This document shows, piece by piece, positions 12 through 32,900 of a stretch of 64,000 nucleotides of DNA; position 1 is the stretch's first letter; every line of letters begins with the position of its first letter. The translations under genes and the position numbers were made by a program. The notes beneath the pieces were generated by a model. It did no database searches, was not told where the DNA came from, and saw only the letters and a list, made by a program, of their open reading frames with translations. The stretch is from assembly GCA_965222655.1 (NCBI GenBank), contig CBDCUP010000003.1:103932-167931 (forward strand), given 5' to 3'. Source of the DNA: Acidobacteriota bacterium (lineage in GTDB: Bacteria > Acidobacteriota > UBA6911 > RPQK01 > JAJDTT01).

Positions 12-1286
12 CTATCTGGCCTTTGCTTCGAGGTGGTCACTCCCATTGGTCAACCACTCAAGATTGAATCGAGCCAGGTCAATTCGCGTATCCGTCCCCC
101 AGTCTACCTCCGCCTTGCCGAACCTTCGTGGTGGGACGTTATAGGACAGAAGAACGGTCATGTCGGGTGCCACCGCAAGATCCGAGTAGCCCCCCGGTCC
201 AGCGGTGACTACTCTCGACACCGGCCAGGTGCGGCACTCGTCGTAGCTGACCCTCACGGTCATGTGGGACCTGGCATCTGTCTTGGAAGGATGGGCCAAC
301 AACACACGATTCTTTCGGAAGCTCTCTTGATCTGTGAAGCGCACCAGGCTGCCCTGACAGGACGGTTCCGGGAGAGTGGCGTCGTTCCGAACCTCGGACC
401 AGGTTTGCCCCCCATCAGGGCTCCGGGCATAGGCACGGCGGAACGTCCTCTGACGGCTGCGCATGTTCATGTAAAGAGACCCATCCATGGTCTCGACCAC
501 TTCACACTCATCGGAGGCATTTTCCGTGAGCGGCTCTCCTCGTTTCCAGGTGGCGCCGTGGTCATCGCTGAAGGTAACGTAAGACAGCTGCACGCTCTGG
601 CCCCGCCAATGCGAACTCCAGATGAGGGGCAGTGAGATGTGGAAGATCAGGTCCAGGAGCTTCTCGGACTCGGGTCCAATCTGACCAGCCCAGGGGATTA
701 GCGCAGGGGTGATGTCCGCCCAACTTGGGATCAGCAATCGGCCACTCTTCAGCTGAATCCCGTGCCCCGGACCCGTGCCGACATAGCCCCAGGCCGGGTC
801 TCTTGCAGAACCGGTAATGTCTACGGGTTCGGACCAGGTTGCACCTTCGTCGGTGCTCTTCATGACAAAGACGCTACGGTTGTTCTTGCAGAAGGGCAAC
901 CAGATCGTCCCGGTCTCTCTATCCACCACCGGGCACGTGTTCCCCATGGTATGAGGACCCTCGTCGACAATCACCTGCACGTCGGTCCAGGTCTTGCCGT
1001 AGTCAAAGCTCCGGCGCAGAACGACATCGATGTCATCCCAATCCCGGCAACTGCGCTTCCTGGCTTCAGCCAGGACAAGAACGGTACCCTTCGGCGAGAC
1101 GATCAGCGAACTGTTTCGATAGCAGACATAGCCGTTTTCTCCGGCTCGAAACAGGGTCAACGTTTCAAACAGGCTTTCCTGACTCTGGCCTCTCGCTTCA
1201 AGCGTGAGAATCCCCAGGTCGGCGCCTGCCACAAAGAAAACAGAGACGCAGCACAGTAACAGCCATCCTAGGCGGGAACGAACCAT
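12..1286 (-). CDS. Exo-alpha-sialidase (GH33, BNR/Asp-box repeats), secreted
   Basis: There are four Asp-box motifs (SFDYGKTW, STDEGATWS, SDDHGATWK, SPDGGQTWS). The protein is strongly paralogous to the ORFs at 40783..42072 and 50979..52136. The start at 1286 gives MVRSRLGWLLLCC, a signal peptide, and is preceded by AAGGAG with a 6-nt spacer. The track's extension to 1328 is rejected. Confidence 0.85.
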   Translation of the reverse strand: MVRSRLGWLLLCCVSVFFVAGADLGILTLEARGQSQESLFETLTLFRAGENGYVCYRNSSLIVSPKGTVLVLAEARKRSCRDWDDIDVVLRRSFDYGKTWTDVQVIVDEGPHTMGNTCPVVDRETGTIWLPFCKNNRSVFVMKSTDEGATWSEPVDITGSARDPAWGYVGTGPGHGIQLKSGRLLIPSWADITPALIPWAGQIGPESEKLLDLIFHISLPLIWSSHWRGQSVQLSYVTFSDDHGATWKRGEPLTENASDECEVVETMDGSLYMNMRSRQRTFRRAYARSPDGGQTWSEVRNDATLPEPSCQGSLVRFTDQESFRKNRVLLAHPSKTDARSHMTVRVSYDECRTWPVSRVVTAGPGGYSDLAVAPDMTVLLSYNVPPRRFGKAEVDWGTDTRIDLARFNLEWLTNGSDHLEAKAR

Positions 1287-1500
1287 AATGATCTCCTTGT
1301 CACTCATGGGAGCCAACTTGCTTGTCATTGTCGACCATCGAAGAGAGCCAAATCAAGGACAGCCGAGATTTTACTTCGCAGCTCATTTTCGGATTGTGTT
1401 TCCTCGCGGGCGCCCTATAGTCTTACTCGAAAGAGAATCGGGGCCTTCGGTTACCCTGAGTCGAGGTAATAGCTTCCGAGAGCACAAGGGAGATATCTAG

Positions 1501-4410: not shown

Positions 4411-5424
4411 ATGGTTGTGGATAAAGAATCCGTTGAGTTGGGCTTGATTGGCTGCGGGGGATTCGGCAGTCACCTTGCCACCGAGATTTTTCAGGATGTT
4501 GAAGGGCTGAGACTGGGGGCGGTCTATGACGTTGACCGTCCTGCGGCCCAGCGTCTGGGAGAGCAGCTGGCCGTCCCGGTGGTCAGTTGTGTCGAGGAAA
4601 TGTTCGGTATCCCTTCAGCGGATGCGGTTTTAATTGCCACACCGCACGATACCCACGAACGGCTGACTGTGATGGCGGCCGAAGCCGGCAAGCACATCTT
4701 CTGTGAGAAGGCGATGGCACGCACTGTGGACGAATGTCGTGTCATGATCGAGGCGGCCGAGATCCATGGAGTCAAGCTCATGGTGGGCCATAAGCGGCGC
4801 CTACGACCCGAGTACGCGCGACTGGCGGAAATCGTGCACAGCGGACGATTGGGAAAACCGGTTGCGGCAACCGTAACCGGCTTTCACTATTCGGACTACT
4901 ATCGGGGATGGTGGTCGGAGAAGAGGCGCTCGGGGGGAGAATTGCACTGTGCCGGTGCACACGATCTCGACTTCCTGCGGTTCCTCATGGGGGATGTGCA
5001 AACCGTCTTCGCGGTTGAGGGGCCGCGAATCAGCAGCGAGCATGATTGGCCAGATAGTATCCTGGTGACGCTGCAGTTTCGCAGCGGTGCGGTCGGCAGT
5101 CTTCAGATCGCGTTCAACTATCCGATGCTTTCCTTCCAGAACTCCTTTGCTACGCGAATAGCATGCGAGAGGGGGGCTGTCTGGTACGATCCTGAGCAGA
5201 TTACTGTGGCCTGGCAGGAAATCGGAGAAGAAGAACAAGAGGTGAAATTTTCGGATCACGGCTACAATGAAGCCTACCGTTTGGAACTGAAGAACTTTGT
5301 CGAATGGATCCAGCAAGATGCGGAGCCAGTCCTGACCGCAGAGAACGGACTTCGGTGTGTAGAACTGATGCAAGCCGCCTATCAGTCTGCTGCGGATGGA
5401 AAACCCATCCATTTGCCGCTCTAG
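4411..5424 (+). CDS. Gfo/Idh/MocA family NAD(P)-dependent oxidoreductase (sugar dehydrogenase-like)
   Basis: GLIGCGGFG Rossmann motif at the N-terminus, plus the EKAMA..........GHKRR pattern typical of the family. Confidence 0.8.
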   Translation: MVVDKESVELGLIGCGGFGSHLATEIFQDVEGLRLGAVYDVDRPAAQRLGEQLAVPVVSCVEEMFGIPSADAVLIATPHDTHERLTVMAAEAGKHIFCEKAMARTVDECRVMIEAAEIHGVKLMVGHKRRLRPEYARLAEIVHSGRLGKPVAATVTGFHYSDYYRGWWSEKRRSGGELHCAGAHDLDFLRFLMGDVQTVFAVEGPRISSEHDWPDSILVTLQFRSGAVGSLQIAFNYPMLSFQNSFATRIACERGAVWYDPEQITVAWQEIGEEEQEVKFSDHGYNEAYRLELKNFVEWIQQDAEPVLTAENGLRCVELMQAAYQSAADGKPIHLPL

Positions 5425-5481
5425 AGGCCGATTCAGCGGGCTTTCACGGCCTGGAAGCAGCCTCTTAGAAAGGGGAAAGAG

Positions 5482-6327
5482 ATGATTATTGATGTCCATT
5501 GCCACCTGGGAAAGTCGGAGTATCTAAAGCCGGATATCAAGGAAGAGGAGAAGAGGATCTCGGGAGGAAAGGAGCCACACTACGCCAGTGATGAGGAGGT
5601 GGCTGAAACGATCCGAGCACAGGTAGATCGGGCCATCCTCCTTCCCTTCCATTGGAGCCAACTAGGCGTCCATGTGAGCAACGAACGCGCCGCCGAATTC
5701 GTCGAAAAATACTCGGATACGTTTATCGGCTTCCTCTCGGTGGATCCACACTTGCCCGAAGCCTACGAGGATCTCAAGAAAGGGTTTTTCGAACTGGGAC
5801 TCAAGGGGGTGAAGATGAGCGCCATCTATCAGAACTTTGATCCCCTGGACGATAGGATGAAGCCCATTTACGCGTTCGCGGAGAAGCACGGTCTGCCAAT
5901 GATGCTGCATCAGGCGACGGTTCCGTTCCGTCGCTCTCTTTTGAAGTACGCGAGTCCCGCGTTGTTCGACGAGGTGGCGCTGGAATTTCCCAACCTGAAG
6001 ATGATCATGGCTCATATGGGACACCCCTGGGTCGAGGACTGCATCGTCATGGTTCGAAAGCATCCTCACGTCTACGCCGACGTCTCGGGGGTCTTACTGC
6101 GGCCCTGGATGGCCTATAACTTCCTCCGCTTGGCCACTGAGTGGGGGATATTGGACAAACTCCTTTTCGGGTCCGATTACCCCTTCGTGATGACCCCTCA
6201 AGAGACCATCGACCGCCTTCGCGGCATCAACGACATCTTGGAGGGCACCAAACTGCCACGGGTGCCGGAAGATGCGATCGAGAAGATCATCCACAGGGAT
6301 TCCTTGGCGATGCTCGGGTTAGAGTAG
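5482..6327 (+). CDS. Amidohydrolase_2 family metal-dependent hydrolase (candidate sugar lactonase)
   Basis: The N-terminus MIIDVHCHLG is the hallmark of amidohydrolase 2 TIM-barrel enzymes, a family that includes L-fucono- and L-rhamnono-lactonases. A GGGAAAGAG ribosome-binding site lies upstream. Confidence 0.7.
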   Translation: MIIDVHCHLGKSEYLKPDIKEEEKRISGGKEPHYASDEEVAETIRAQVDRAILLPFHWSQLGVHVSNERAAEFVEKYSDTFIGFLSVDPHLPEAYEDLKKGFFELGLKGVKMSAIYQNFDPLDDRMKPIYAFAEKHGLPMMLHQATVPFRRSLLKYASPALFDEVALEFPNLKMIMAHMGHPWVEDCIVMVRKHPHVYADVSGVLLRPWMAYNFLRLATEWGILDKLLFGSDYPFVMTPQETIDRLRGINDILEGTKLPRVPEDAIEKIIHRDSLAMLGLE

Positions 6328-6392
6328 CAGGACAACCGGTCCAAACGGGGACCCATTGCACCAAATGTTCTGTGATAGACGATCGAACAGAA

Positions 6393-7625
6393 ATGGCTAC
6401 TGATAGCTCTGAAGTAAACAAGGTTACAGTCCTGACCGTCAGTATTGGACTGGCCTTCTTGAGTGGCGCCACCATCAACTGGCTACCCGTCACTTACGCC
6501 CACTTTGAGAGAGAATTCGCTGCAGGGCTCCAGGCACAGGGCAGCACTTGGGGTCTTTTCTTCGTGGGTGGGATCGTCATTGCTGCGCTCGGCGGATGGC
6601 TCACCAAAAGCTTGGGCCTGAAACGAGCGGCGTCTGGCACCCTCTTGGTGCTCGGCCTCGGCATGTCGATCGTCGGGGGAGCACCACTCTTTGGGGTGTT
6701 GTTGATAGGGTGCTTTCTATTCGGCATGGGCATGAACTGGATGACGATCGTCTACAGCACCCTCATCTCCTCTCATTTCCAAGAGCGCCGCCAGTCGCTC
6801 TTCCTCTGGGCCAACGCCGCCCTGTCCGGAGGGTCTTTCCTGACTCTGCCTCTGCTCGGAATCTGGTTCGAGCACACGGAATACACGGGCGGATGGCGCT
6901 CCGCTTATTTGGGTCTGGGTGCGGGCGCGATCCTTGGAGGTGGATTGTTGTTTTGGTTGTGTAGCAGTCTGGAACCGGTCGCGACGGCCGAAGAGGAAAC
7001 GGGCACTAAAGAGTCCAGCGGTCTCAAATCCCTGCTGGGTCAGGGTGGGTTCTGGTTGATTGGGCTGTGCTTTTTTCTCTACGCCATGGCCCAGCTGGCA
7101 ATCTGTTCCTGGGTAGGACAGCTCTACCGCTACCGACTTTCAATCGACGATGCCCAGGCGGGTTCCCTGCTCGGGTTCAATTCACTCGGATACTTGATCG
7201 GACTGCTGATTCTCTCCTGGCTCTCCAGCAGGCGCAACTACAATGACCGTCTCCTGCTGGCGGTCTGCTGCGGAAGCGCCACCGTCGTTCTGATCGCCGT
7301 CATACTGAGTCAGGAATATACACTCGGTTTGGTTCTCATGACGCTGGAAGGAGCCACCATTGCCGGAAGTGGTCCCGCCATTTTCTCGTTTGTGGGCGCT
7401 CGTTTCCAGAAAGAAGGAGCCCTCGCTTTCGCCCTGTTGGTTGGTTTCTCCCAAGTGGGTGCTTCGGCCGGACCCTATTCGGTGGGATTCCTGGGAGAGA
7501 GACTCGGAGGGCTGGAGACCGCGATTTGGATCGTGCCCTTTCTAAGTGCGGTGGTAGCGCTGTTGAGCCTGACTTGGGAGTTCGGGGACAGGAAGCGACG
7601 AGGCAAGGCTCAAGGGGCGGCTTGA
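6393..7625 (+). CDS. MFS transporter
   Basis: About 410 aa with 12 predicted hydrophobic segments. The start is re-assigned to the ATG at 6393 (MATDSSEV); the track ORF runs from 6141 through the 3' end of the upstream gene. Confidence 0.75.
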   Translation: MATDSSEVNKVTVLTVSIGLAFLSGATINWLPVTYAHFEREFAAGLQAQGSTWGLFFVGGIVIAALGGWLTKSLGLKRAASGTLLVLGLGMSIVGGAPLFGVLLIGCFLFGMGMNWMTIVYSTLISSHFQERRQSLFLWANAALSGGSFLTLPLLGIWFEHTEYTGGWRSAYLGLGAGAILGGGLLFWLCSSLEPVATAEEETGTKESSGLKSLLGQGGFWLIGLCFFLYAMAQLAICSWVGQLYRYRLSIDDAQAGSLLGFNSLGYLIGLLILSWLSSRRNYNDRLLLAVCCGSATVVLIAVILSQEYTLGLVLMTLEGATIAGSGPAIFSFVGARFQKEGALAFALLVGFSQVGASAGPYSVGFLGERLGGLETAIWIVPFLSAVVALLSLTWEFGDRKRRGKAQGAA

Positions 7626-7640
7626 AGGTGGAGGAAGAAG

Positions 7641-8827
7641 ATGGAACGGATGCGTATCACGGGACTGCAGACCTTTCTGGTGAACGCGCATTGGCGCAAC
7701 TGGACGATCGTGCGGCTGGATACCGACAGCGGTCTGTCCGGCTACGGGGAAGGGACACTCGAGGGCCGTGAACAGACTGTCGAGACTGCCATCCGCGAGC
7801 TGGAGCGCTACCTGGTGGGCAAGGATCCCTTTCAGATCGAGCGCCACTTCCAGGAAATGTACCGACGAGCCTTCTGGACCGGGGGGGCCGTGCTCAACAG
7901 CGCCATCAGCGCAGTGGACATGGCACTTTGGGACATCAAGGGCAAGGCCCTGGGTGTTCCGGTCTACGAGCTCCTGGGTGGCCGGGTGCGTGACCGGATC
8001 AAGCTTTATGCCAACGCCTGGTACAAAGGTGGGGCTTCACCGGAAGAGATGGCGGATCAGGCCAAAGAGACAATAGCCCGGGATTCAAGGGACTCAAGTT
8101 CAACCCTTTTATACGCCGTGAGGGCTACGACTTCTACCGCCTGGACAACGACATCCTCTGGACCGGTGTCGACTGCGTTGCAGCCGTGAGAGAGGCGATA
8201 GGTCCCAGCATCGATCTCTACATCGACTGCAACGGTGTCTTCAACACGGTCGGGAACGCGGTCCGGGTAGCAAAGCTACTGGAGCCGTATAACATCGGCT
8301 TTATAGAGGAGCCGATCCCGCACGAGAACCTCTCGGAGATGGCTTACTTCCGCCGCAAGGTCAATATCCCTGTGGCAACCGGGGAACGTCTCTTCACGAC
8401 ATTTACGTTCCAGCAGCTCCTGGAGATTGAAGGTGCGGATATAGTTCAGCCTGATCTCTGCCATTGCGGCGGAATCTGGGAAGCTCGCAAGATTGCCGCC
8501 ATCGCCGACACTCACTATGTGGCCATGGCGCCCCACAACCCCAACGGCGCCGTCGGCCATAGCGCCACCGTCCAACTTGCCGCCTCTGTTCCGAACTTTC
8601 TGGTACTGGAATACTTCCCTCCCGAGAGCTGGCGCGAAAGTGTCGTTTCCGATTCTTTTGCAATTGAGGATGGCTGGCTGGAGATTGCCGACCGGCCTGG
8701 CCTCGGAATCGAATTCAATGAAGAGGAAGCAGCCAAGCGTCCCTACCAGCCTGTCGATCTATACGATCTGCACCGCAAGGAGTTCGAGCTGCACGTCCCC
8801 GGATTCGAGGAAGGGCCGGAGGAATGA
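7641..8827 (+). pseudogene. Enolase-superfamily sugar-acid dehydratase (D-galactonate/D-mannonate dehydratase-like), interrupted by a -1 frameshift near 8079-8083
   Basis: N-terminal part 7641..8189 ends in nonsense (TIARDSRDSSS...). The C-terminal part continues in the frame of ORF 8186..8827, with homologous sequence (GFKGLKFNPFIRREGYDFYRLDNDILWTGVDCVAAVREAIGPS) already readable upstream of 8186. The shift falls in the homopolymer run gcccggg at about 8076-8083. Confidence 0.75.
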
Positions 8828-10583: not shown

Positions 10584-10747
10584 GGGGACCATCCTGATCT
10601 CGTGTTTTAGAGGATCTCTACACGTCTCGTGCGGTTTCATGATGCCATACGATGGGGCTTTGTGCATTACCCAAGTGCTGGAGTATCCTATCTTGACGGT
10701 GGCGTGGGGCCGTGCTATATAACCATCGATTAGAAAGGAAACCTTCG

Positions 10748-12046
10748 ATGAAGTCTTCAAGACGCGTCTTCGTTAAGTCCGGCCTAACCCTTGCGGCTGG
10801 AACCAGCCTGATCGGGAAATCCGCAGAGTCAGAGGCCACCCCTGGCGGTGAGAAGGGCGTCCTCTACGAAGGATATGCAATCAAACCCAGACCGAGCGTT
10901 CAGGAAGCAACTCTTGCGAAGTTGAAGGATGGGCGCTACTGGCTCCTTTTTGGTGAGGGTTCCAAGGGTGAGGCCTCTCACTACAAAGATCCGGGTTTTA
11001 TGAAGGGAAGGTTCTCCAACGATGGGGGGCGTTCCTGGCAGGAGACGATGCAGCTGCAGACCAAGGATGGATCGCCGATCGCGACGGCGCGGGTCACCCC
11101 CCACCACAGCCTGTTCAGGCTTCCTTCGGGCGCCCTGGGTTTGATCCATGGAGGACCCTATGCCCGATCGGGGCGGGACGGGACGGTCTTGTTCCGCAAA
11201 TCTACAGACGAAGGTCAGAGCTGGTCGGCTCCGGTGACCGTGGATCCCTACTTCTCCCTCAGCCGGACCGGCAGCGTTCGAGTCCTCAGCAACGGGCGCA
11301 TTTTGACGCCGGTCGTGTCCTGGATCAGCCCGGACGCGGGACCGACGTCGGAAAGCGTGGAACGTACCCTTTTCTTCACCTTGGTTTTCTACTCCGACAA
11401 TGAGGGAGAGTCATGGAATCGTGCCCTGAGCGAGTTGTTCATTCCCTGGGACAAAATGAACCTGGGTGCACAGAGCTTCGATGAGCCGGTCGTGGAAGAG
11501 CTGAAAGATGGCCGGGTCCTGATGTATGCACGAACCCAGATGGGGAATCTCTACCAGAGCGTTTCCGAAGACAGAGGGATTACATGGTCGGTTCCCTCCC
11601 CCTTGCCCCATGCCACATCTGATGCGCCCTGCACCCTCATTCGGATCCCGGCGACCTCCGATCTGCTGCTGGTCTGGAATCAGGTCTCCGAAGAGGAAAC
11701 CAAGGCCGGCCTGAATCGACACCGACTGTCTTGCGCGGTCTCGCAGGATGAGGGCAAGATCTGGAAACATCACAGAAACCTGGAATCGCTGGATGACACC
11801 ACCCATGTGCCACCTCCAGAGGGTCCCCTTCGCGTAATCAAATCAGGAAGTTACACTCAGCCGACCGATCGCAAGCGCTATCATCGAGCCCCGGGACCGC
11901 TTCGGGTGAGCTATTGCACCGTTGCCTTTACCGGAGATGAAGTGACTTTCGCCTACGACTACGGATACGGCGTCGGTGAGTTGTTAGATGCCCAGGCAAC
12001 CAAGATCAAGATCGTTTCTCTGGATTGGCTTTACGGTCGGGTTTGA
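10748..12046 (+). CDS. BNR/Asp-box repeat protein of the sialidase superfamily, secreted
   Basis: Asp-boxes are SNDGGRSWQ, STDEGQSWS, SDNEGESWN, SEDRGITWS and SQDEGKIWK. The signal is MKSSRRVFVKSGLTLAAG. It lacks the obvious RIP motif of the three GH33 paralogs, so its activity is uncertain. Confidence 0.65.
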   Translation: MKSSRRVFVKSGLTLAAGTSLIGKSAESEATPGGEKGVLYEGYAIKPRPSVQEATLAKLKDGRYWLLFGEGSKGEASHYKDPGFMKGRFSNDGGRSWQETMQLQTKDGSPIATARVTPHHSLFRLPSGALGLIHGGPYARSGRDGTVLFRKSTDEGQSWSAPVTVDPYFSLSRTGSVRVLSNGRILTPVVSWISPDAGPTSESVERTLFFTLVFYSDNEGESWNRALSELFIPWDKMNLGAQSFDEPVVEELKDGRVLMYARTQMGNLYQSVSEDRGITWSVPSPLPHATSDAPCTLIRIPATSDLLLVWNQVSEEETKAGLNRHRLSCAVSQDEGKIWKHHRNLESLDDTTHVPPPEGPLRVIKSGSYTQPTDRKRYHRAPGPLRVSYCTVAFTGDEVTFAYDYGYGVGELLDAQATKIKIVSLDWLYGRV

Positions 12047-12118: not shown

Positions 12119-12222
12119 CGAGATTGTGCTGTTGTCCGCTCTCTCCTGCCTGCGTCGTCCTCGACGGCCGGAACTTGGCCCCATATTGCAGACGATTCAA
12201 GCCGTGCGCGGCTCTGTTGGAT
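12119..12222 (-). repeat. Intergenic repeat family copy A (ATTGTGCTGTTG...GCGGCTCTGTTGG core), carrying a 30-nt insertion
   Basis: Alignable by eye to copies at 16575-16665, 32786-32865 and 59746-59822. The shared blocks are attgtgctgttg, ggaacttg, atattgcagacga, tcaag and gcggctctgttgg. Confidence 0.6.
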
Positions 12223-13159
12223 CGGCACTGGCATGTCTCTCGTCGTGCCTCTGCAGAGCCTCAAGGACCCGATCGGTCAGGATCTGGACGTATCTCGCCG
12301 TATCCTGATCCGGAGTGAAGGTGGCTGAGCGCACCATGCCGCTGGAGATCAATCCGCGCTCGAGGAGCAGCCGCTTCTCCATATACAAATACAACTCCAG
12401 ATTCTGGAGACTGAACACGATGTGGGGAAGAACATCCGAGAAGATGTCAAGGGCGGTCTTGACATCGCCCGCCTTGGCGAGTGAGAAGACCTCCTGAAGG
12501 AGTTCTGCCATCCCCAGTCCCGGCATTGAGCCGCAGGCGCCGGACAGGATCCCCTCCACCAGATAGAGGCCACCCCAACCTTCAAGTACCTCGACCCCTC
12601 CCTCGGTTTCCTCCTGGATCTGTCGCAGCTTTGGAGCCATGAGTGGCTCCTCCAGTTTGAGGTAGCGAAACTGTGGATACTCCCGATGCAGCCGCCCAGC
12701 AAATGACGGGCTCAGTGTCGCGCCGGTAGGGTTGAAATCCTGAATGAGCACAGGCAGGGAAGTCGCTTCCAGGAGGGTTGCCAGATAGCGAAAAATATCC
12801 TCGTCCGGGAGTGCGAAGAGACGGGGCACAGCCACCGAGATAGCTCCAGCACCCAACTCCTCATTCCTTTTCGCGATCTCGGCCGCCAACTTGGCCGAAT
12901 AATGATTGGACTGTGCGACGACGCGGAGCCGCCCGTCTGAGGCCTCGACTGCGGCTTCCACTAGAGCATACCGTTCGTCCAGGCTCAGCTTGTAGAACTC
13001 ACTTGCGTAGGCAGGCAGACAAACGGCAGGGAGTTGCTTGGCGACGGAGAACTTGACCAGGCGACGCAGAGAGTCCAGGTCCAGTTCCTCCCCGGCATCA
13101 AATGGTGCTACCAGAACGGGAACAATTCCTCGAATGTTCAGCCTTTCCTCACCTGTCAT
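12197..13159 (-). CDS. Dihydrodipicolinate synthase family aldolase/lyase (candidate N-acetylneuraminate lyase or 2-keto-3-deoxy-sugar-acid aldolase)
   Basis: DHDPS/NanA-family fold signatures over about 300 aa. The last roughly 10 codons are contributed by the repeat element, so the C-terminus is uncertain. Context is sialidases and sugar-acid dehydratases. Confidence 0.6.
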   Translation of the reverse strand: MTGEERLNIRGIVPVLVAPFDAGEELDLDSLRRLVKFSVAKQLPAVCLPAYASEFYKLSLDERYALVEAAVEASDGRLRVVAQSNHYSAKLAAEIAKRNEELGAGAISVAVPRLFALPDEDIFRYLATLLEATSLPVLIQDFNPTGATLSPSFAGRLHREYPQFRYLKLEEPLMAPKLRQIQEETEGGVEVLEGWGGLYLVEGILSGACGSMPGLGMAELLQEVFSLAKAGDVKTALDIFSDVLPHIVFSLQNLELYLYMEKRLLLERGLISSGMVRSATFTPDQDTARYVQILTDRVLEALQRHDERHASADPTEPRTA

Positions 13160-13325
13160 CTCATCTCTGCGATTCCAGACGCACGTAGCAGCGACTCTTC
13201 AAGTAGTCGCAACCATAGCAGTTCAAGGCATCCAGGACATCCAAATTGGAAGATCGCGAACAAAAGCATGCCAACTCCGAAATCCCGTGTCGCTCATGGA
13301 AAGAGGATGCTATTCTCTAGGGAAA

Positions 13326-15023
13326 ATGAAATCGAGTCATGACAACGTATTTCTGATCTTCTCCCTATTGCTTCTCGTCCCGTTCGGCTGCACAGCTTCG
13401 ACTAACGATCGAATCGTGATCCTGACCTTTGACGGGAGCTTCAAGTCCCACCGGACCTTGGTGGCACCGCTTCTCAAGGAGCTGGGTCTGGGTGCAACCT
13501 TCTTCGTGAACCACCCATCGAACGACCCATCGAACGACCAATCCGATTCCCTGACCTGGTCGGAAATCGCCGAGATCGACCAGATGGGTTTCGAGATCGG
13601 GAATCGCGGCTGGAGCTGTCTCGACCTTTCCGTGCCGAGAAACGCAGCTCGACTCCTTGGCGATCTCGCCCTGGTTGAATTCGAATTGGACAAGGTAGAA
13701 GTGCCTCGGCCGATCAGCTTTGCCTACTGCCAGGACAGCTTCGGTCCGGAAGCACTGGGAAAGTTGGATAGCCGCGGATACCGCTTCGGACGCCGAGGGG
13801 TCGAACCCAGGCCTTCGAGTCCTGGATTCGACCCGACAAACCATCATCCCCTTTCCATTCCCGCCTCCGGCAGCGTCGATTCAAACTGGACCGAAGAGGG
13901 TTTCAATCGATTGGTCAACCATGCCAGTGGCGAGTCGATTGTGGTATTGCGTTTTGGCGCGGTCGGGGACGCGAATCAAGCCGCCCCGAGTATCACCGCT
14001 GAGAGCTTCAGGAAGTTCATGAATCAACTCAAAGAGCAGAGGTATATGGTGGCTGCAATGAGGGATCTGGACGATCGCTTCAGCTGGCAGACCGAGGATC
14101 AAGATCCCGGTCTGCCCTCGCGACATCCAGAACCCCAACAAGGGCGCCTTTCGCTGCCAGAAGAAATGGAATCGACTCGGGACGAACTGGCTTTCTGGTT
14201 GAAGAACATGATCCGCGACCACGGATACAAGTGGGAGGAGGCGGCACAGGTGACCGGCCTCAGCCTGGATGCACTGCAGGAAGAGGCGGAGAAGCTCGGA
14301 TTGGGAGAGCTGTCTGCAAATGTCCCGACGGGAGGACTCCGAATTCTTCCCTACCCCGGAGGGCGTCATCCACGCATCGGCCACCTGGAAGCGGCCATCG
14401 ATCCCATGCGAGGCACCAAGGTAAGCATCTTCCTGCCCTGGGAAGGTGCTGGCTACGCCGTGATCGATCTTCCGGAGACCTTCGAGGCGGAGGGAGAGCA
14501 GCTCATCTTTCTCGCCCATGCCCACGTTCCCACGATCTGGAATCTGCAGAACCAATGGTTGGAGAACGTCGATTGGAGCCGAACCTCCGATGGCGGTGTG
14601 GAGAGCGAGCGCGTTCTACCGAATCAGGTATCCTTCGGATCCGCCGCTCGACTTGATGGAGAACAGGTGAAATTGGAGTTGTGGTTGAAGAACGGATCCA
14701 CCAAGACCCTCAAAGAGCTGCGGGCCGCCGTTTGTCTGATGCTCAAGGGTGCCCCGGACTTCAACACCCAGACGAAGGAAAATAAGATCTTTCGCTGTCC
14801 CGTATCAGCGGTCAGATCGGCAAAGGGAGATCGGTGGATATTGATCGCTTGGGATTACTGCCAAGTCCCGGGAGGCAACCAGGATGTTCCCTGCTTGCAC
14901 GCCGACCCCGTGTTTGAGGATTGCCCACCTGGAGAGGCAGTGCGAGCAGAGGGAAGAGTGTGGTTCTACGAAGGAGAAGACATTGAGGGCGAACTTGAGA
15001 AATCAGCCGGTCTATTCCGTTAA
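13326..15023 (+). CDS. Polysaccharide deacetylase (NodB homology domain) fused to a roughly 330-aa C-terminal domain of unknown function, secreted
   Basis: Start re-assigned to the ATG at 13326 (MKSSHDNVFLIFSLLLLVPFGC, a signal peptide). The NodB-like region is RIVILTFDGSFKSHRTL...ATFFV...; the C-terminal half has no family I recognise. Confidence 0.65.
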   Translation: MKSSHDNVFLIFSLLLLVPFGCTASTNDRIVILTFDGSFKSHRTLVAPLLKELGLGATFFVNHPSNDPSNDQSDSLTWSEIAEIDQMGFEIGNRGWSCLDLSVPRNAARLLGDLALVEFELDKVEVPRPISFAYCQDSFGPEALGKLDSRGYRFGRRGVEPRPSSPGFDPTNHHPLSIPASGSVDSNWTEEGFNRLVNHASGESIVVLRFGAVGDANQAAPSITAESFRKFMNQLKEQRYMVAAMRDLDDRFSWQTEDQDPGLPSRHPEPQQGRLSLPEEMESTRDELAFWLKNMIRDHGYKWEEAAQVTGLSLDALQEEAEKLGLGELSANVPTGGLRILPYPGGRHPRIGHLEAAIDPMRGTKVSIFLPWEGAGYAVIDLPETFEAEGEQLIFLAHAHVPTIWNLQNQWLENVDWSRTSDGGVESERVLPNQVSFGSAARLDGEQVKLELWLKNGSTKTLKELRAAVCLMLKGAPDFNTQTKENKIFRCPVSAVRSAKGDRWILIAWDYCQVPGGNQDVPCLHADPVFEDCPPGEAVRAEGRVWFYEGEDIEGELEKSAGLFR

Positions 15024-15036: not shown

Positions 15037-16560
15037 ATGATCCGTCGAACTCGGATAATCGTATGCTGCCTGGGCATCTTGCTGGCCGCGCTGGTTGAGA
15101 CACCCGCAGGCGAGAAGGGCAATCCGGTAAAGCCTTATCGAGTCATCTTCAACTGTGACGGGCACGCAGTGGCAAAGGACGCGCAGGGGGATCTCAAGCA
15201 GTGGATTGAGAACCTGTTCGGGCCACTGGAGAACAGCCACGTCGACGCGCTGTTCTGGTGCGATGGTGCGGGAGGCAACACCGCCAATTACGAGAGCGAG
15301 GTGCTGGAGCGTACCGGAGCCCGTGCCGGCAAACCACGTAGCTACATTGACAAATGGATCGCCGAGGGAAATGACCCACCTAAAGTTGTCGTGAGAGAAG
15401 CTCACCAGCGCGGACTGGACGTCTTTTTCTCGTTTCGAATCAACGACATCCATGACTCCTTCATGCCGGACGAGCGGCCGACTTTCAAAGTAGAAAATCC
15501 CGGCTGGATGCTCGGCGAGCAGAATTATGGGAGCGTCACCAGTTTTCCGACCGCGTTGAATTTCACTGTGCCTCAGGTCCGCGACCTGAAGTTCAGGATC
15601 GTGGAAGAGATCTTTCAGAAGTACGACTTCGACGGGCTGGAGGTCGATTTCTTACGCAGCTCGCCCTACTTCATGCCGGGCACGGAGGCCCAAAACGCCC
15701 ATCTCCTCACCGGGTTGTTGCAGCGGATCCGCAAACACTTGAACGCGCGGGGAGCGGAGCGCGGCCGGCCTATTCGGCTGGCAGTTCGCGTCAATGAAAA
15801 TCTAAGTTCCTGCCGCCAGGACGGCTTCGATGTGCGCGCCTGGCTCGAGCAGGACCTGGTCGACATGATCGCGCTCGGCAGTGGCGTGATGGATATCGAG
15901 GTCGAGGAGTTCAAGCAGCTGGCCGCGAGGCACGGCGTCTATGTCTATCCCTGCCTCTACGGCTGGCCCAGCAAATACAATCCGATCCCGGCCGAGCTGG
16001 CTACCGGGCTGGCCCTGAACTACTGGGCACAGGGCGCCGACGGCATCTATTTGTTCAACTGGTTCCCGCATCCGAAGAATAATAGTGAAAAGCACGGTCC
16101 CTACATGACGGGATTGATGAAGCAGCTGGGGGATCCCGCCGCCTTGCGTGCCAGCCAGCGACACATCATGTTTGCCGCCGATCGGGGCCGGCCGCAACGG
16201 TCCTATCAATACAACTGGTTGCACTGTGTGTTGCCGGAGGCGCTGCCCCTGGACAAGCCGCTGCGGGCCACCATCCGCGCGTTCGAGCAATTTCCCGAGG
16301 GCGTGCAGTTAACTCTGCAGATGCAGGTGCAGAATCTGCAGGCCGACGATGAAATCGCGGTGCGCCTGGCTGGCCAACTAGTGACCGGCTGGCGGCGGGA
16401 CGCGAATGGCCGTCTGACGGCACCCGTCAAGCCCTCCCTGCTGCGACAGGGTTCGAACCCAGTGTCCATGCAGCTCATGGAACGCGCGGCCACGTCAGCA
16501 GCTCCGCGCACTGTCACCGCGCTGGAGCTGCACGCGGTACGAAAGATCGATAATCAATAG
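15037..16560 (+). CDS. Secreted TIM-barrel-like protein of an uncharacterised glycoside-hydrolase-like family (paralog of 42332..44089 and 59929..61677)
   Basis: Signal peptide MIRRTRIIVCCLGILLAALV. Shared blocks with the two Tat paralogs are HVDAL, RxNDxHD, F(D/E)(R/F)DP and LYLFNW. It sits 13 bp downstream of the deacetylase, in apparent operon. Confidence 0.55.
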   Translation: MIRRTRIIVCCLGILLAALVETPAGEKGNPVKPYRVIFNCDGHAVAKDAQGDLKQWIENLFGPLENSHVDALFWCDGAGGNTANYESEVLERTGARAGKPRSYIDKWIAEGNDPPKVVVREAHQRGLDVFFSFRINDIHDSFMPDERPTFKVENPGWMLGEQNYGSVTSFPTALNFTVPQVRDLKFRIVEEIFQKYDFDGLEVDFLRSSPYFMPGTEAQNAHLLTGLLQRIRKHLNARGAERGRPIRLAVRVNENLSSCRQDGFDVRAWLEQDLVDMIALGSGVMDIEVEEFKQLAARHGVYVYPCLYGWPSKYNPIPAELATGLALNYWAQGADGIYLFNWFPHPKNNSEKHGPYMTGLMKQLGDPAALRASQRHIMFAADRGRPQRSYQYNWLHCVLPEALPLDKPLRATIRAFEQFPEGVQLTLQMQVQNLQADDEIAVRLAGQLVTGWRRDANGRLTAPVKPSLLRQGSNPVSMQLMERAATSAAPRTVTALELHAVRKIDNQ

Positions 16561-16715: not shown

Positions 16716-17690
16716 TCAGATCACGGCGCTTTGGAACCGCTCGAGCTCTTTCTTTTCCCACTCGGATAAACGGCCAGCATATTCGTGAGCCTGGTTTACG
16801 AAGTCAACCCCAGCCATACGCTTCCATCCCTGCATCAGCTGCTGGAACACCGGTCCCGGCTTACCGTCTCCCACTAGCTGGCCCTCGAAGGAGCGGGCGT
16901 GTACCAGAGAGTAGGTTGTGGCGGTGCACAGGATCTCGTCGGCCTGGAGCGCCTCGTAGCGTCCCAGGTTGGCTTCCCGCGTGGGAATCCCCAATTCCCG
17001 GGCCACATCTAGCGTGGCACCCCGCGAGACCCCGAGCAAGATGTTCCGTCCCTCGGGACTGATCAGGACACCGTCCTTGACCAGGAACACGTTCCAGCCG
17101 GGACCTTCTGCCAGGAACCCGTCCGGGTCGAGAAGAATCGGCCACTTGTCTGCTCCCATCCGGGCTCCCTGCAGCTGGGCCAGCTGGTAGTGGAGGCGGC
17201 TGCGAGTCTTGGCCTTCGGATCCACTATATGGGCCGGTACTGCCTGCTGCGGGACGATGACCAGCTCGACTCCGGGGTCGTAGTTGGGGGCGAACTGGCC
17301 CATGTGGGTAATGAGAGGCCAGCAATTGATAGAGACCGTCGGCCTGACCCCCTGAGGAAAGACGGTGCGGTATAGGGACAATGGTCCCCTGGAGACATTG
17401 TGCATGATCAGCCAGTCCACGTCACCCGCCTCGGTGGGGGTATTCCGCTCCAAGATCTGGTGGGTGAGCTCCTCCATCTCCTCCAGCGAGATTCCCGATT
17501 CGATCTCCAGCAGACGGAGAGAGCCGTAGAGGCGATCGAGATGATGGCGGAGCCGGAAGGGCTTTCTCTGGAAGGTTCGGGTCATCTCAAAAGCCATATC
17601 TCCAAACATCGAAGACGAGTCGAAGATGGAAACCCGTGCTTCGGACTCCTGCACGTACTCACCATTGAAGTAGACGGTTCTTCCAGACAT
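16716..17690 (-). CDS. Class IV (branched-chain/D-amino-acid) aminotransferase
   Basis: 324 aa of PLP fold-type IV; the stretches MSGRTVYFNGEYV...EARVSIFD and ...ILLGVSRG...ELGIP match the ilvE/dat family. Confidence 0.7.
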   Translation of the reverse strand: MSGRTVYFNGEYVQESEARVSIFDSSSMFGDMAFEMTRTFQRKPFRLRHHLDRLYGSLRLLEIESGISLEEMEELTHQILERNTPTEAGDVDWLIMHNVSRGPLSLYRTVFPQGVRPTVSINCWPLITHMGQFAPNYDPGVELVIVPQQAVPAHIVDPKAKTRSRLHYQLAQLQGARMGADKWPILLDPDGFLAEGPGWNVFLVKDGVLISPEGRNILLGVSRGATLDVARELGIPTREANLGRYEALQADEILCTATTYSLVHARSFEGQLVGDGKPGPVFQQLMQGWKRMAGVDFVNQAHEYAGRLSEWEKKELERFQSAVI

Positions 17691-23039: not shown

Positions 23040-24430
23040 CTGAGCCGTGCGGCGCGGCGCGCCGGGCCCCCCCGGAAGGGGGCCAAAGGCCGTCAGCCGA
23101 AGGGTTGAGCCGTCAGAGGTCTGGGACAAGATTCTCTAAATCATTCATCCAAAATGAAAGGAGAATCCAATGGCCCCAGACCTGGAAGACAGAGTACCAC
23201 GAGAGATCCTAGAGGCGTTGATCCAAGAAGGAACGGAGGCCTTTCGCAAGGTGTTGGAGAAGCTCTTGAACTTGGCCATGGGATTGGAACGGTCGGAGTT
23301 TCTGGGAGCCGAGCCCTACGAGAGAACGAGCCAGCGACGGGGCCACGCCAACGGTTACAAGGACAAGAAGATCGCCACGCGTGTGGGAGAGCTCCGACTG
23401 AAGATCCCTCAGGTGCGAGGGCTGTCGTTCTACCCTCAATCGCTGGAGAAGGGCTGCCGCTCGGAAAAGGCGCTGAAGTTGGCCATTGCCGAGATGTATG
23501 TCATGGGCGTCTCCACGCGCAAGGTCACGGAAATCACCGAGCAGCTGTGTGGCACGGAGATCTCCGCCAGCCAGGTCTCACGGGTCGCCTCCCTGCTGGA
23601 TGAGGAGCTGGAGAAGTTCCGTAGCCGGCCGCTGAGCGGTGAGTATCCCTTCGTCTACCTGGACGCCCATTACGAGAAAGTCCGTGTCGATGGACGAGTT
23701 CAGGACCTGGCCATCCTCAAGGCAGTCGGTGTGCAGGCTTCCGGTCACCGTGAGGTCTTGGGTCTGAGCGCCCGGCTGAGCGAGGCGGAGGTCCACTGGA
23801 GAGCGTTTTTTGAGGATCTGGCCGGGCGGGGACTCAAGGGAATGGAGCTCGTCGTCAGTGACGACCACGCGGGACTGAAGGCCGCTCGACGAGCGGTGTT
23901 TCCCGCGGTTCCCTGGCAGCGCTGCCAGTTTCATCTGAGCCAGAATGCTCAGCGCTTTGCCCGTCGGCTCCAAGAGCGGGGCCAGATCGGCCAAGCGATG
24001 CGGGACATCTTCAACAGCCCCACCCTCGAGGATGCCGAAGCCATGCTCAAACGCAAGATCAAGGCGTTCACCGAAACCAACCAGGCACTGGCCCAGTGGA
24101 TGGAAGACAACGTGCGCGAGGGGTTGACGGTCTACGCCTTCCCCCGCAGTCTGCACAAGAAGATCCGGACGATTAACGGCGTGGAGAATCTCAACAAACA
24201 GATCCGGCGCCGCACTCGAGTGGTGGGAATCTTCCCCCATATCGACTCGGCGTTGCGACTGATCTCAGCCGTGCTGGCGGAGATTCACGACGAGTGGCTC
24301 ACGGGCCGCTGCTATCTGAACCTGGAGAGCTGGCAAGAAGAGGAGGCATCCTAGAAGAGCGTTTCCCTAAACCCGAGACCCTCAGATCAGCGAGGGTTCT
24401 CGGTAAGGGGCAGCCCGCGATCGTGGCTCT
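23040..24430 (+). mobile_element. IS256-family insertion sequence (boundaries approximate)
   Basis: Contains a complete IS256/mutator-type transposase gene. Candidate outer inverted match TTTCTGTAATTTC at 22937 / GAAATTACAGAAA at 24627. The ends could not be resolved by eye. Confidence 0.4.
23170..24354 (+). CDS. IS256 family transposase (mutator-type)
   Basis: 394 aa. Characteristic blocks are KVLEKLLNLAMGLERSEFLGAEPYERT..RRGHANGYKDK, YLDAHYEKVR, LVVSDDHAGLK.A...FP....QRCQFH and the ...AEIHDEWLTGRCYL C-terminus. Confidence 0.9.
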   Translation: MAPDLEDRVPREILEALIQEGTEAFRKVLEKLLNLAMGLERSEFLGAEPYERTSQRRGHANGYKDKKIATRVGELRLKIPQVRGLSFYPQSLEKGCRSEKALKLAIAEMYVMGVSTRKVTEITEQLCGTEISASQVSRVASLLDEELEKFRSRPLSGEYPFVYLDAHYEKVRVDGRVQDLAILKAVGVQASGHREVLGLSARLSEAEVHWRAFFEDLAGRGLKGMELVVSDDHAGLKAARRAVFPAVPWQRCQFHLSQNAQRFARRLQERGQIGQAMRDIFNSPTLEDAEAMLKRKIKAFTETNQALAQWMEDNVREGLTVYAFPRSLHKKIRTINGVENLNKQIRRRTRVVGIFPHIDSALRLISAVLAEIHDEWLTGRCYLNLESWQEEEAS

Positions 24431-32674: not shown

Positions 32675-32683
32675 GATTCTCCT

Positions 32684-32711
32684 GAGTGAGCAGTGAGCAG
32701 TGAGCAGTGAG
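32684..32711. repeat. Heptamer tandem repeat GAGTGAG (CAGTGAG)x3
   Basis: Direct reading, immediately after the PQQ-dehydrogenase stop codon. It is the inverse of the array at 16680-16707. Confidence 0.7.
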
Positions 32712-32785
32712 AAAACTCCAAGGGACAAGGTACAAACAAACAAACAAATTCCAAACGATGCGGCAGCAATACGCAGCGAAATTCA

Positions 32786-32865: not shown

Positions 32866-32900
32866 GTGATTTCAGCCAGAGTTTCCTCCCAAATTTGTGC

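Follow-up and report, generated by a model that had tools for sequence, protein, structure and literature searches.

Three predicted exported proteins of a free-living acidobacterium are probable divergent members of glycoside hydrolase family GH156

Three genes of an acidobacterium, here termed A, B, and C, probably encode divergent, exported members of glycoside hydrolase family GH156 that would also share the mechanism of this family. The relationship was observed directly in homology, fold, residue conservation, and gene linkage. An initial annotation of the window (the whole 64-kb stretch of DNA that was analysed) had described three paralogues of a secreted family, and these are indeed three intact, homologous open reading frames on the + strand:

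15037..16560, + strand: paralogue A, 507 aa, probable A-type GH156 enzyme; Sec-like signal at aa 1 to ~25, (beta/alpha)8 barrel at ~34-375, C-terminal beta-sandwich at ~376-507
42332..44089, + strand: paralogue B, 585 aa, probable B/C-type GH156-like enzyme; TAT signal, barrel at ~aa 47-390, C-terminal beta-sandwich at ~aa 430-585
59929..61677, + strand: paralogue C, 582 aa, probable B/C-type GH156-like enzyme with a TAT motif

What is new here is the placing of these proteins in a known family, GH156, and a B/C sub-clade that was previously unstudied. The full-length identity of B and C is 68%, and about 347 aa of A align with B at 28% identity (E 9e-36, far above chance), which agrees with the earlier account of two copies about 70% identical to each other and a third that had diverged. 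Searches of all six reading frames of the window with the HMMs of each clade recovered exactly A, B, and C and no further paralogue. The sequence blocks quoted as shared are real, but only part of them is common to the three proteins: HVDAL, R[IM]ND.HD, and G[LI]YLFNW occur in A, B, and C, whereas the long block AIINEFATRWDNDGVMLDF.RDP is specific to B and C and is matched loosely by A (RIVEEIFQKYDFDGLEVDFLRSSP). The FNCDGH of A aligns opposite WEGEWN in B and C.

The founding member of GH156, EnvSia156 (ORF12p), is an exo-alpha-sialidase from a hot-spring metagenome, whose inverting character was established with enzyme assays and 1H-NMR (Chuzel et al. 2018, PMC6254351) and for which structures are available (Bule et al. 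2019, PMC6811678; PDB 6rzd, 6s00, 6s04, 6s0e, 6s0f). It is, with one gut enzyme, the only member of the family assayed so far. The paralogues had been left without a glycoside hydrolase family, and CAZy GH156 now fills this place by sequence, profile, and fold. The search of the PDB with phmmer gave 6rzd (EnvSia156) as the sole strong match (A 1.3e-24, B 4.1e-15), and the family profiles matched the same entry at 8e-31 (A) and 3.6e-27 (B/C). The comparison of profiles with hhalign against the EnvSia156 clade gave 1.5e-41 over the full length for A and 5.3e-35 for B/C. We built an HMM from the EnvSia156 clade alone, as a proxy for the dbCAN/CAZy model of GH156, and it scored A at 128 bits, C at 87 bits (2.1e-26), and B at 83 bits. 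The identity to EnvSia156 is low, about 28% by BLAST and 17-20% in structure-based alignments.

The AF2 models (pLDDT 88.7 for A; pLDDT 82.4 and pTM 0.84 for B) have eight barrel strands followed by a C-terminal all-beta domain, the same architecture of (beta/alpha)8 barrel and beta-sandwich as EnvSia156; the sandwich of GH156 is eight-stranded. The best PDB matches of these models in Foldseek, a check that the initial annotation had proposed, are GH156 structures (A: 6s00, E 3e-34, TM 0.76/0.78; B: 6rzd, E 3e-32, TM 0.69/0.81), and the alignments to 6rzd/6s00 take in both the barrel and the beta-sandwich. Models and matches bear out the secreted (beta/alpha)8 glycosidase-like fold suggested at first. 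The NCBIfam scan of A, B, and C returned TAT-signal models and spurious BslA matches far under cutoff, and no function. A relationship with GH18 chitinases was rejected (A 16.7 and B 13.2 bits against a cutoff of 29.6; PDB chitinases at E of at least 0.006), this similarity being at the level of the fold or noise, and the sub-threshold CBM-like/BslA matches in Pfam were taken in the same way.

The catalytic residues follow a layout other than the Glu/Asp pair on strands 4 and 7 that had been expected. A, B, and C have the GH156 constellation, with a base (putative in B and C) ending beta1, an Arg and a His after beta3, an Arg after beta4, an Arg in beta5, and an Asn after beta8. The models contain a TIM-barrel, and the conserved blocks map onto this constellation, in a predicted active-site-like pocket. 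The principal residues are the following:

15157..15159, + strand: A Asp41, equivalent of EnvSia156 Asp14, C-terminal end of beta1 (strand 36-41)
15436..15453, + strand: A Arg134-Ile-Asn-Asp137-Ile-His139, EnvSia156 Arg129, Asp132, His134 (HMMER; 116/116)
15655..15657, + strand: A Arg207, EnvSia156 Arg202; followed by Ser208 for Phe203
16057..16059, + strand: A Asn341 (LFNW), EnvSia156 Asn346
42494..42496, + strand: B Glu55 (IWEGEW), Glu where the GH156 general base Asp sits
42797..42814, + strand: B Arg156-Met-Asn-Asp159-Pro-His161, EnvSia156 Arg129, Asp132, His134 (90/90)
43061..43063, + strand: B Arg244, EnvSia156 Arg202; followed by Asp245 for Phe203
43295..43303, + strand: B Gly322-Ala-Gly324, after beta6, in place of Phe278/Trp279
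43463..43465, + strand: B Asn378 (LFNW), EnvSia156 Asn346
60088..60090, + strand: C Glu54
60391..60408, + strand: C Arg155/Asp158/His160
60643..60645, + strand: C Arg239
60787..60789, + strand: C Arg287
61045..61047, + strand: C Asn373

The positions of EnvSia156 Arg129, Asp132, His134, Arg202, buried Arg246, and Asn346 have identical occupants in A, B, and C, which 97-100% of the 116 A-type and 90 B/C-type homologues retain (counts from hmmalign alignments). The AF2 models place all of them at C-terminal ends of the barrel strands. The general acid His134 corresponds to His139 in A, His161 in B, and His160 in C and is kept in 116/116 A-type and 90/90 B/C-type proteins. The carboxylate triad Arg129/Arg202/Asn346 corresponds to Arg134/Arg207/Asn341 in A, each found in 116/116 A-type homologues, and to Arg156/Arg244/Asn378 in B (90/90, 90/90, and 89/90 of the B/C-type).

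The general base required a different procedure: Asp14 falls outside the HMMER local alignments, both with single sequences and with the two family profiles. We mapped it in A by rebuilding the EnvSia156-clade alignment from a fragment query and then using hhalign, and in B/C by way of A. Asp41 of A is the equivalent of Asp14 (IFNCDGH against ALNEDNSH), in a similar N-x-D motif of beta1, and is an Asp in 113/113 A-type homologues. Opposite Asp41 stands Glu55 in B and Glu54 in C in the hhalign of the family profiles, with which MAFFT agrees. Glu occupies the position in 88/88 members of the B/C clade, and in the wider superfamily 43/44 aligned members have Asp. The B/C profile alignment to the EnvSia156 clade begins past beta1, so that the assignment of Glu55 rests on the alignment of A to B/C and on the strand boundaries of the model, in which Glu55 ends the beta1 strand 50-55. 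B and C would thus have a changed catalytic residue, with Glu as putative base. They also carry Glu in place of the invariant Asn two residues before, and the beta1 motif of their clade is E-x-E-W as opposed to N-x-D-G.

The hydrophobic +1 platform of EnvSia156 (Trp164, Phe203, Phe278, Trp279) is kept in neither the A-type nor the B/C-type proteins, whereas the EnvSia156 clade has Phe203 and Phe278 throughout (110/110) and Trp279 in 103/110. In A, Ser208 takes the place of Phe203, and Gly281-Ser282 that of Phe278/Trp279; the substitutes in B are Asp245 and Gly322-Ala323, respectively. The aromatic pocket is accordingly replaced by Ser and G-S-G in A and by Asp and G-[A/S]-G-[Y/F] in B/C (G-[C/A]-G-Y across the clade), with Gly322 and Gly324 of B found in 90/90 B/C-type proteins. 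Asn15 and Ser16, which contact the glycerol side chain in EnvSia156, are substituted in both clades. Since both sets of residues are replaced, specificity may differ from that of EnvSia156; the +1 platform is a matter of specificity, not of family membership.

A survey listed 556 putative GH156 sialidases, of which 212 come from Planctomycetes, and made a functional test on one gut enzyme only; to be listed, a protein had to keep at least four out of the five residues of the active site, and a single polar substitution was tolerated (Mann, Shekarriz and Surette, bioRxiv 2022.06.28.497753). By the same count, A scores 5/5 and B/C score 4/5 with the conservative change of Asp to Glu. The proteins of that set are typically 500-600 aa long, as are A, B, and C, have GH33 or CE4 domains fused or colocated, and share a mean pairwise identity of 28%, equal to the distances found here. 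The text of the survey makes no mention of a clade with a Glu base.

Export is where the paralogues depart from most of the EnvSia156 clade, in which 87/109 proteins begin directly at the barrel. The twin-arginine signals claimed for two copies are there as canonical motifs at the N-termini of B (SNRRNFLK) and C (FNRRNFLR); against TIGR01409 (cutoff 16.7), B scores above, at 21.4, and C slightly below, at 14.3. A has a Sec-like N-terminal helix (MIRRTRIIVCCLGILLAALV; helix 2-20 in the model). The predicted routes would therefore be TAT for B and C and Sec for A. AAGGAG(G) ribosome-binding motifs lie 6-8 nt 5' of the ATG of B and C. A scan for promoters and terminators around A was uninformative, with fewer sites than shuffled sequence gave.

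The expansion had been placed inside a glycan-degradation region, and the neighbouring genes agree with this:

12..1328, - strand: BNR_2 sialidase-like protein, four Asp-boxes
10712..12046, + strand: BNR_2 sialidase-like protein, TAT-like N-terminus, four Asp-boxes
12197..13159, - strand: DHDPS-family lyase or dehydratase; top NCBIfam match N-acetylneuraminate lyase, far under cutoff
13296..15023, + strand: CE4-type (Polysacc_deac_1) domain protein (Pfam), ending 13 nt before the ATG of A
40783..42072, - strand: GH33-type sialidase (BNR_2), YRIP, five Asp-boxes, divergent neighbour of B
50790..52136, + strand: GH33-type sialidase (BNR_2), FRIP, five Asp-boxes
61674..63795, + strand: SGL (SMP-30/gluconolactonase-like) gene, then enolase-superfamily (MR_MLE) gene (Pfam)

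Four BNR_2/GH33-type genes are thus present, two of them with the Y/FRIP motif and five Asp-boxes. GH33 exo-sialidases are six-bladed beta-propellers with a retaining mechanism, a Tyr/Glu nucleophile pair, and an Arg triad; their fold, catalytic residues, and stereochemical outcome are all unrelated to those of GH156. The substrate class is probably common to the two families, which are encoded side by side in the window. In other genomes, A-type homologues (60-65% identity) are fused in a single polypeptide to BNR_2 sialidase domains, or to SGNH esterase domains. The literature describes GH156-GH33 and GH156-CE4 fusions (Mann et al., bioRxiv 2022.06.28.497753). BNR-type genes lie at most 10 kb from B/C-type genes in 14/23 loci (Acidobacteriota, Opitutales, Planctomycetota, and others), in several cases adjacent and on the same strand; sulfatases, in 3 loci, and SGL, in 4, are linked to the B/C-type less often. 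This context supports a role with sialic or other ulosonic acids. The CE4 gene and A, whose ATG is 13 nt past the preceding stop codon, are probably in one transcript. Translation of C is coupled to that of the lactonase-like SGL gene, which overlaps the stop codon of C by 4 nt. The module of SGL and the enolase-superfamily gene is kept downstream of C orthologues (loci L004 and L009); it stands outside the canonical pathway of sialic acid. With every match below cutoff, the DHDPS-family neighbour cannot be named as NanA. A class-IV aminotransferase is encoded at 16716..17690. A conserved unannotated neighbour of 784 aa had no match in a sequence search of the PDB. An IS256-family transposase is also encoded in the window. 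A horizontally acquired island was considered and rejected: despite this transposase, GC content is even across the window (0.53-0.60), and compositional support for an island is therefore absent.

EnvSia156 cleaves off terminal sialic acid in a single displacement with inversion, and we infer that A, B, and C do likewise with their own substrates. By homology, the Arg/Arg/Asn triad would clamp the carboxylate beside the anomeric carbon of a 2-ulosonic acid, the His that follows beta3 (His139 in A, His161 in B, His160 in C) would protonate the leaving group, and the carboxylate ending beta1 (Asp41 in A, Glu55/Glu54 in B/C) would activate the attacking water. A has the features of an orthodox GH156 enzyme and would probably work with the CE4 esterase/deacetylase encoded upstream and the neighbouring GH33-type sialidases. 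Sialylated substrates, placed first among the assays suggested by the initial annotation, are the right choice. B and C form part of a separate, uncharacterised clade of uncertain substrate, with about 90 members in Acidobacteriota, Planctomycetota, Verrucomicrobiota, Lentisphaerota, and others, for which there is no Pfam or NCBIfam model. This clade has lost the aromatic +1 pocket, and the copies B and C carry TAT motifs. It would most likely act on a different ulosonic-acid glycoside, or in a different linkage or aglycone context.

The alternative that survives best agrees with ours in mechanism, of which it is a sub-case, and rivals it in substrate. B and C, and possibly A, would be GH156-fold hydrolases acting on Kdn, Kdo, legionaminic, or pseudaminic acids of microbial exopolymers and not on Neu5Ac-type sugars, with the product entering a non-NanA route. 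We hold this to be unlikely, although with a real chance of being right. Both the Glu at the base position and the E-x-E-W motif are confined to the B/C clade, the +1 and glycerol-contact residues are substituted, the conserved module of C also comprises SGL, an enolase-superfamily gene, and an MFS transporter, and the B/C-type genes of other phyla are linked to Aminotran_4, Amidohydro_2, AP_endo2, and PhyH. EnvSia156 itself accommodates Kdn, and different ulosonic acids have been raised as a possibility (Mann et al., bioRxiv 2022.06.28.497753). However, a GH33-type sialidase is still the strongest conserved neighbour, the carboxylate triad and the acid are unchanged, the replacement of Asp by Glu is conservative, and no result here points to a specific alternative sugar. 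We put forward, as a speculation that is rather improbable as it stands, a more definite version for the B/C clade: a functionally distinct GH156 subfamily that would act on microbial or algal polymers of the environment and free an ulosonic acid other than Neu5Ac, for instance Kdn, Kdo, or one of the bacterial nonulosonic acids, into an undescribed catabolic route. The markers of such a route would be the SGL lactonase, the enolase-superfamily dehydratase, and the MFS transporter in Acidobacteriota, and AP_endo2, Amidohydro_2, and a class-IV aminotransferase in Lentisphaeria.

The proteins could instead be glycosidases for neutral, uronic, or sulfated sugars, in which the Arg/Arg/Asn set serves another role and the lactonase, dehydratase, and sulfatase neighbours mirror the true substrate. 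The coupling of C to SGL and an enolase-superfamily dehydratase fits this idea, as do an Opitutales locus with three B/C-type copies interleaved with sulfatases and the GFO/IDH, Amidohydro_2, enolase-superfamily, and MFS genes of the window, which are typical of oxidative aldose/uronate pathways. Some CAZy GH156 entries may also target neutral sugars (Mann et al., bioRxiv 2022.06.28.497753), but these were suspected because they lack the dyad or the triad, which are kept here in essentially every member. The triad stands beside the dyad as required for a carboxylate on the anomeric carbon, and linkage to sialidases is much commoner than to sulfatases or SGL. We consider such substrates improbable.

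Much less probable is that these are cell-wall glycan hydrolases or lytic transglycosylases of the type of Pfam GHL10 (PF02638), a group of the same barrel superfamily whose structural representative is Cwp19 of Clostridioides difficile (PDB 5oq2). A exceeds the gathering cutoff (36.1 against 27.9 bits), as do many EnvSia156-clade proteins, each by little, and Cwp19 is the second-best match by sequence and by fold. Of the A-type homologues listed, all but three have a precomputed PF02638 match, and it is these scores over threshold that give A-type proteins the NCBI name 'family 10 glycosylhydrolase'. Yet the match of A covers about one third of the profile (positions 45-163 of 311), B and C are sub-threshold, with no Pfam match to GHL10 at E up to 1, and none of the B/C-type homologues has a precomputed match. 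The matches to Cwp19 are far weaker than those to GH156 by sequence (E 2e-3 to 5e-5 against 1e-24 to 1e-31) and by fold (E 1e-11 to 1e-13 against 1e-32 to 1e-34), with a query TM of 0.37-0.49 over the barrel only and no match for the beta-sandwich. Cwp19 lacks the active-centre residues of GH156, the two active centres not being conserved between them (Bule et al., PMC6811678), and the gene context is that of glycan catabolism, not cell-wall metabolism. We have dropped this reading. It is just as hard to believe that one or more paralogues are catalytically dead carbohydrate-binding proteins: multi-copy families sometimes hold pseudoenzymes and the base position is altered in B/C, but the catalytic and substrate-binding positions, Glu included, are invariant in ~90 B/C-type and ~116 A-type proteins, as is typical where purifying selection acts on an active site.

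Placing A, B, and C in GH156 bears on annotation, on the family, and on the organism. GH156, discovered in 2018, is among the few sialidase families without a beta-propeller and has an unusual inverting mechanism based on His and Asp. The A-type proteins now named 'family 10 glycosylhydrolase' and the B/C-type proteins named 'hypothetical' would be relatives of this family with, as judged from their residues, an intact active site. Its putative Glu base, together with the altered aglycone site and the distinctive partners, makes the B/C clade a defined target in the search for new specificities of use in glycan analysis or glycocalyx editing. Finally, a free-living acidobacterium has three GH156-type and four GH33-type genes inside 64 kb, a concentration that speaks for sialic or other nonulosonic acids as an important source of carbon in the environment, outside animal hosts.

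The three paralogs A, B and C are open reading frames lying exactly where the initial annotation had placed them:

15037..16560, + strand, paralog A (507 aa)
42332..44089, + strand, paralog B (585 aa)
59929..61677, + strand, paralog C (582 aa)

B and C share 68% identity from end to end, and A matches B at 28% identity over about 347 residues (E 9e-36). Clade-built HMMs searched against a six-frame translation of the window returned A, B and C alone, with no fourth copy. An AAGGAG(G) ribosome-binding motif lies 6-8 nt 5' of the ATG in B and C, and 13 nt separate the stop of the upstream gene from the ATG of A. Twin-arginine signals had been attributed to two paralogs, and canonical motifs indeed open B and C; the TAT signal model TIGR01409 scores B above its cutoff and C slightly under it. 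The N-terminus of A is modelled by AlphaFold2 as a Sec-like hydrophobic helix.

The initial annotation predicted a (beta/alpha)8 glycosidase-like fold with no assignable glycoside hydrolase family. The fold was right and the family is already known, because PDB, profile, model and Foldseek matches all lead to GH156. The single strong match in a PDB sequence search with A (1.3e-24) and B (4.1e-15) is 6rzd, titled "exosialidase from uncultured bacterium pG7". This is EnvSia156, on which CAZy family GH156 was founded. The enzyme was found through functional metagenomics, and NMR showed that it inverts anomeric configuration, a first for a wild-type exo-sialidase (PMC6254351); it consists of a (beta/alpha)8 barrel (residues 6-376) and a beta-sandwich (377-502) (PMC6811678). 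Profiles of the window clades improve the PDB match to 8e-31 (A) and 3.6e-27 (B/C). We rebuilt the EnvSia156-clade alignment from database relatives at most 83% identical to the crystallised enzyme; profile-profile comparison with it gave a full-length match across both domains for A (E 1.5e-41) and E 5.3e-35 for B/C, and the A and B/C profiles matched each other at E 1.7e-57. The AlphaFold2 models of A (pLDDT 88.7, pTM 0.88) and B (pLDDT 82.4, pTM 0.84) comprise eight barrel strands and then an all-beta domain, and GH156 structures top their Foldseek searches of the PDB (E 3e-34 for A, 3e-32 for B, TM 0.76-0.81). A, B and C are new members of GH156.

In EnvSia156, the catalytic base is Asp14, the acid is His134, and Arg129, Arg202 and Asn346 bind the carboxylate; there is also a buried conserved Arg246, and Trp164, Phe203, Phe278 and Trp279 form a hydrophobic +1 pocket (Bule et al., PMC6811678). 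The alignments give the following equivalents, with the Glu residues of B and C placed by way of Asp41 in A.

Active-site residues of EnvSia156 and aligned residues of the paralogs
Asp14 (base): A Asp41, B Glu55, C Glu54
Arg129: A Arg134, B Arg156, C Arg155
His134 (acid): A His139, B His161, C His160
Arg202: A Arg207, B Arg244, C Arg239
Arg246: A Arg251, B Arg292, C Arg287
Asn346: A Asn341, B Asn378, C Asn373

These residues lie at or just past the C-terminal ends of modelled strands beta1, beta3, beta4, beta5 and beta8, i.e., on the catalytic face. The conserved blocks quoted in the initial annotation are real in the alignment, and this mapping therefore identifies them as GH156 active-site motifs: RMND-HDQ contains the equivalents of Arg129, Asp132 and His134, ...LDF-RDP that of Arg202, and GLYLFNW that of Asn346. 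The beta1 base motif, FNCDGH in A, is aligned to WEGEWN in B/C. Among all retrieved A-type homologs, Asp41 is present in 113/113 aligned sequences, and Arg134, His139, Arg207 and Asn341 each in 116/116; among the B/C-type homologs, the counts are 88/88 for Glu55, 90/90 each for Arg156, His161 and Arg244, and 89/90 for Asn378. The beta1 motif of the wider superfamily is N-x-D-G, with Asp in 43 of the 44 sequences aligning there, so E-x-E-W marks out the B/C clade. The +1 pocket differs too: Phe203 and Phe278 are invariant in the EnvSia156 clade (Trp279 in 103/110), whereas all three are substituted in both other clades, by Ser208 and Gly-Ser-Gly in A and by Asp245 and Gly-Ala-Gly-Tyr in B. The altered pocket in both clades, together with the putative Glu base and E-x-E-W in B/C, suggests specificities different from that of EnvSia156.

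The analysis establishes homology, fold, residue conservation and gene linkage; chemistry, export route and substrate are inferred. By homology, the most likely role of all three proteins is that of exported, inverting exo-glycosidases acting on sugars with a carboxylate at the anomeric carbon: the Arg/Arg/Asn triad would hold this carboxylate, the His past beta3 would serve as proton donor to the leaving group, and water would be activated by the carboxylate at beta1, which is Asp in A and Glu in B/C. They are probably ulosonic-acid (sialidase-type) hydrolases; if so, a preference of B/C for an ulosonic acid other than Neu5Ac is possible, though less likely than not. Action on a neutral, uronic or sulfated sugar is possible but disfavoured, given the invariance of triad and dyad. 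The evidence also speaks against a cell-wall enzyme of the Cwp19/GHL10 type: Cwp19 is the next Foldseek match, but about 20 orders of magnitude weaker than GH156 structures, and does not share the active centre (PMC6811678). The strict conservation of the active site argues against pseudoenzymes.

The A-type, B/C-type and EnvSia156-type clades are discrete (at least 41% identity within, 20-40% between), and the medians between them (27-29%) match the mean pairwise identity of GH156 as a whole, 28% (Mann et al., bioRxiv 2022.06.28.497753). When B was run with HMMER against all 1.84 billion representatives, 2,396 clusters were retrieved at E <=1e-3 (1,265 at <=1e-10), mostly 28-37% identical and 500-560 aa long; within these, the B/C clade proper reduces to essentially a single full-length sequence. 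Thus, B/C is a minor offshoot of a GH156-like superfamily that is large and continuous. Nearly all A-type homologs have a Pfam GHL10 match and, where named, are mostly Planctomycetota proteins labelled "family 10 glycosylhydrolase"; B/C-type homologs have no Pfam match and are all labelled "hypothetical". Some of the latter reach about 700 aa, ~120 residues over B (P0009, P0010, P0013, P0025, P0041, P0042, P0058 and others), and Pfam scans of P0010 and P0058 found no match anywhere, extension included. In the EnvSia156 clade (P0218-P0337), 87/109 proteins begin directly at the barrel motif, without signal peptide; the window proteins are predicted to be exported, so GH156 clades may differ in cell compartment. 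Among genome records, the closest is an Acidobacteriota MAG (B 90%, A 91% identical), which makes an acidobacterial origin of the window most likely. A syntenic Acidobacteriota MAG (L007, CBDCMS010000004.1), matching the window at about 19-42 kb, has an additional B/C-type copy, 50% identical to B, between PQQ dehydrogenase and SGL (SMP-30/gluconolactonase-like) genes; the corresponding interval of the window (32674..32901) spans just 227 nt. Paralog number therefore differs among close relatives. An IS256/Mutator transposase gene (Transposase_mut, E 1.8e-110; 23170..24354, +), between a TonB-type outer-membrane protein gene and TPR/ASPIC genes, is missing at the syntenic position in L007.

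The window also holds four classical sialidase-type genes:

12..1328, - strand, BNR_2/GH33-type
10712..12046, + strand, BNR_2/GH33-type
40783..42072, - strand, BNR_2/GH33-type
50790..52136, + strand, BNR_2/GH33-type

Two of the proteins carry a Y/FRIP motif and five Asp-boxes. A gene with a CE4 (deacetylase/esterase-type) domain adjoins A, and a little upstream lies a DHDPS-family gene whose best match, below threshold, is N-acetylneuraminate lyase. Further genes encode GH2, GFO/IDH, Amidohydro_2, MFS and enolase-superfamily proteins; the run of GFO/IDH/MocA dehydrogenase, Amidohydro_2, MFS transporter and enolase-superfamily genes (4411..8827, +), adjoined by the GH2 gene (1501..4386), is reminiscent of an oxidative (non-phosphorylative) route for aldoses or uronates. 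Two PSCyt2/PSD1 (DUF1549/DUF1553) plus DUF1501 gene pairs (36966..40693 and 55569..59655, +) lie upstream of the sialidase gene adjoining B and immediately before C, respectively. Such pairs are characteristic of Planctomycetota, yet the present ones belong to an apparent acidobacterium. A 784-aa protein (53146..55500, +) with no Pfam or PDB sequence match has homologs near B/C-type genes in five loci (L003, L004, L005, L009, L024), one of which (L009:16608-19112) weakly matches Glyco_hydro_67N (27 bits, cutoff 24.3). The 784-aa protein may be a further glycoside hydrolase that is as yet unclassified.

Elsewhere, A-type homologs (60-65% identity) occur as fusions with BNR_2 sialidase or SGNH esterase domains, and GH156 fusions to GH33 and CE4 were independently reported (Mann et al., bioRxiv 2022.06.28.497753). 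Of 23 B/C-type loci, drawn from at least six phyla, 14 have a BNR-type gene within 10 kb of the B/C-type gene, several of them adjacent on the same strand. Taken together, these observations link both clades with glycan processing of the sialidase type. Some conserved partners fall outside the canonical sialic-acid pathway: an SGL/enolase module, a Lentisphaeria string and sulfatases. The stop of C overlaps an SGL gene by 4 nt (ATGA), followed by an enolase-superfamily (MR_MLE) gene (61674..63795, +), and this module, with an MFS transporter further downstream, is kept in two other acidobacterial loci (L004, L009, ~11.7-16.2 kb); weak SGL-like and enolase-like matches also lie upstream of the copy in a locus from Phycisphaeraceae (L022). 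Lentisphaeria conserve a string of GH156-like, AP_endo2, Amidohydro_2 and class-IV aminotransferase (Aminotran_4) genes, the last closing the string, with a divergent PhyH dioxygenase there too. An Aminotran_4 gene (16716..17690, -), under all NCBIfam equivalog cutoffs, is convergent with A, and others stand beside B/C-type genes in 6/23 loci of other phyla (L006, L008, L011, L012, L018, L025); this recurrence may reflect a pathway for an amino sugar acid that has yet to be described. An Opitutales MAG (L020) has three B/C-type copies in 14 kb, interleaved with sulfatase genes, which hints that some clade members act on sulfated glycans.

A specialist would not be surprised to find GH156 in a soil or water bacterium that degrades polysaccharides, because Planctomycetes and Acidobacteria were already noted among the carriers (PMC6254351; Mann et al., bioRxiv 2022.06.28.497753). 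B and C belong to an unstudied, unannotated GH156 sub-clade with a distinctive putative catalytic motif. With its putative Glu base and unusual gene partners, this clade offers a lead that is modest but open to testing.
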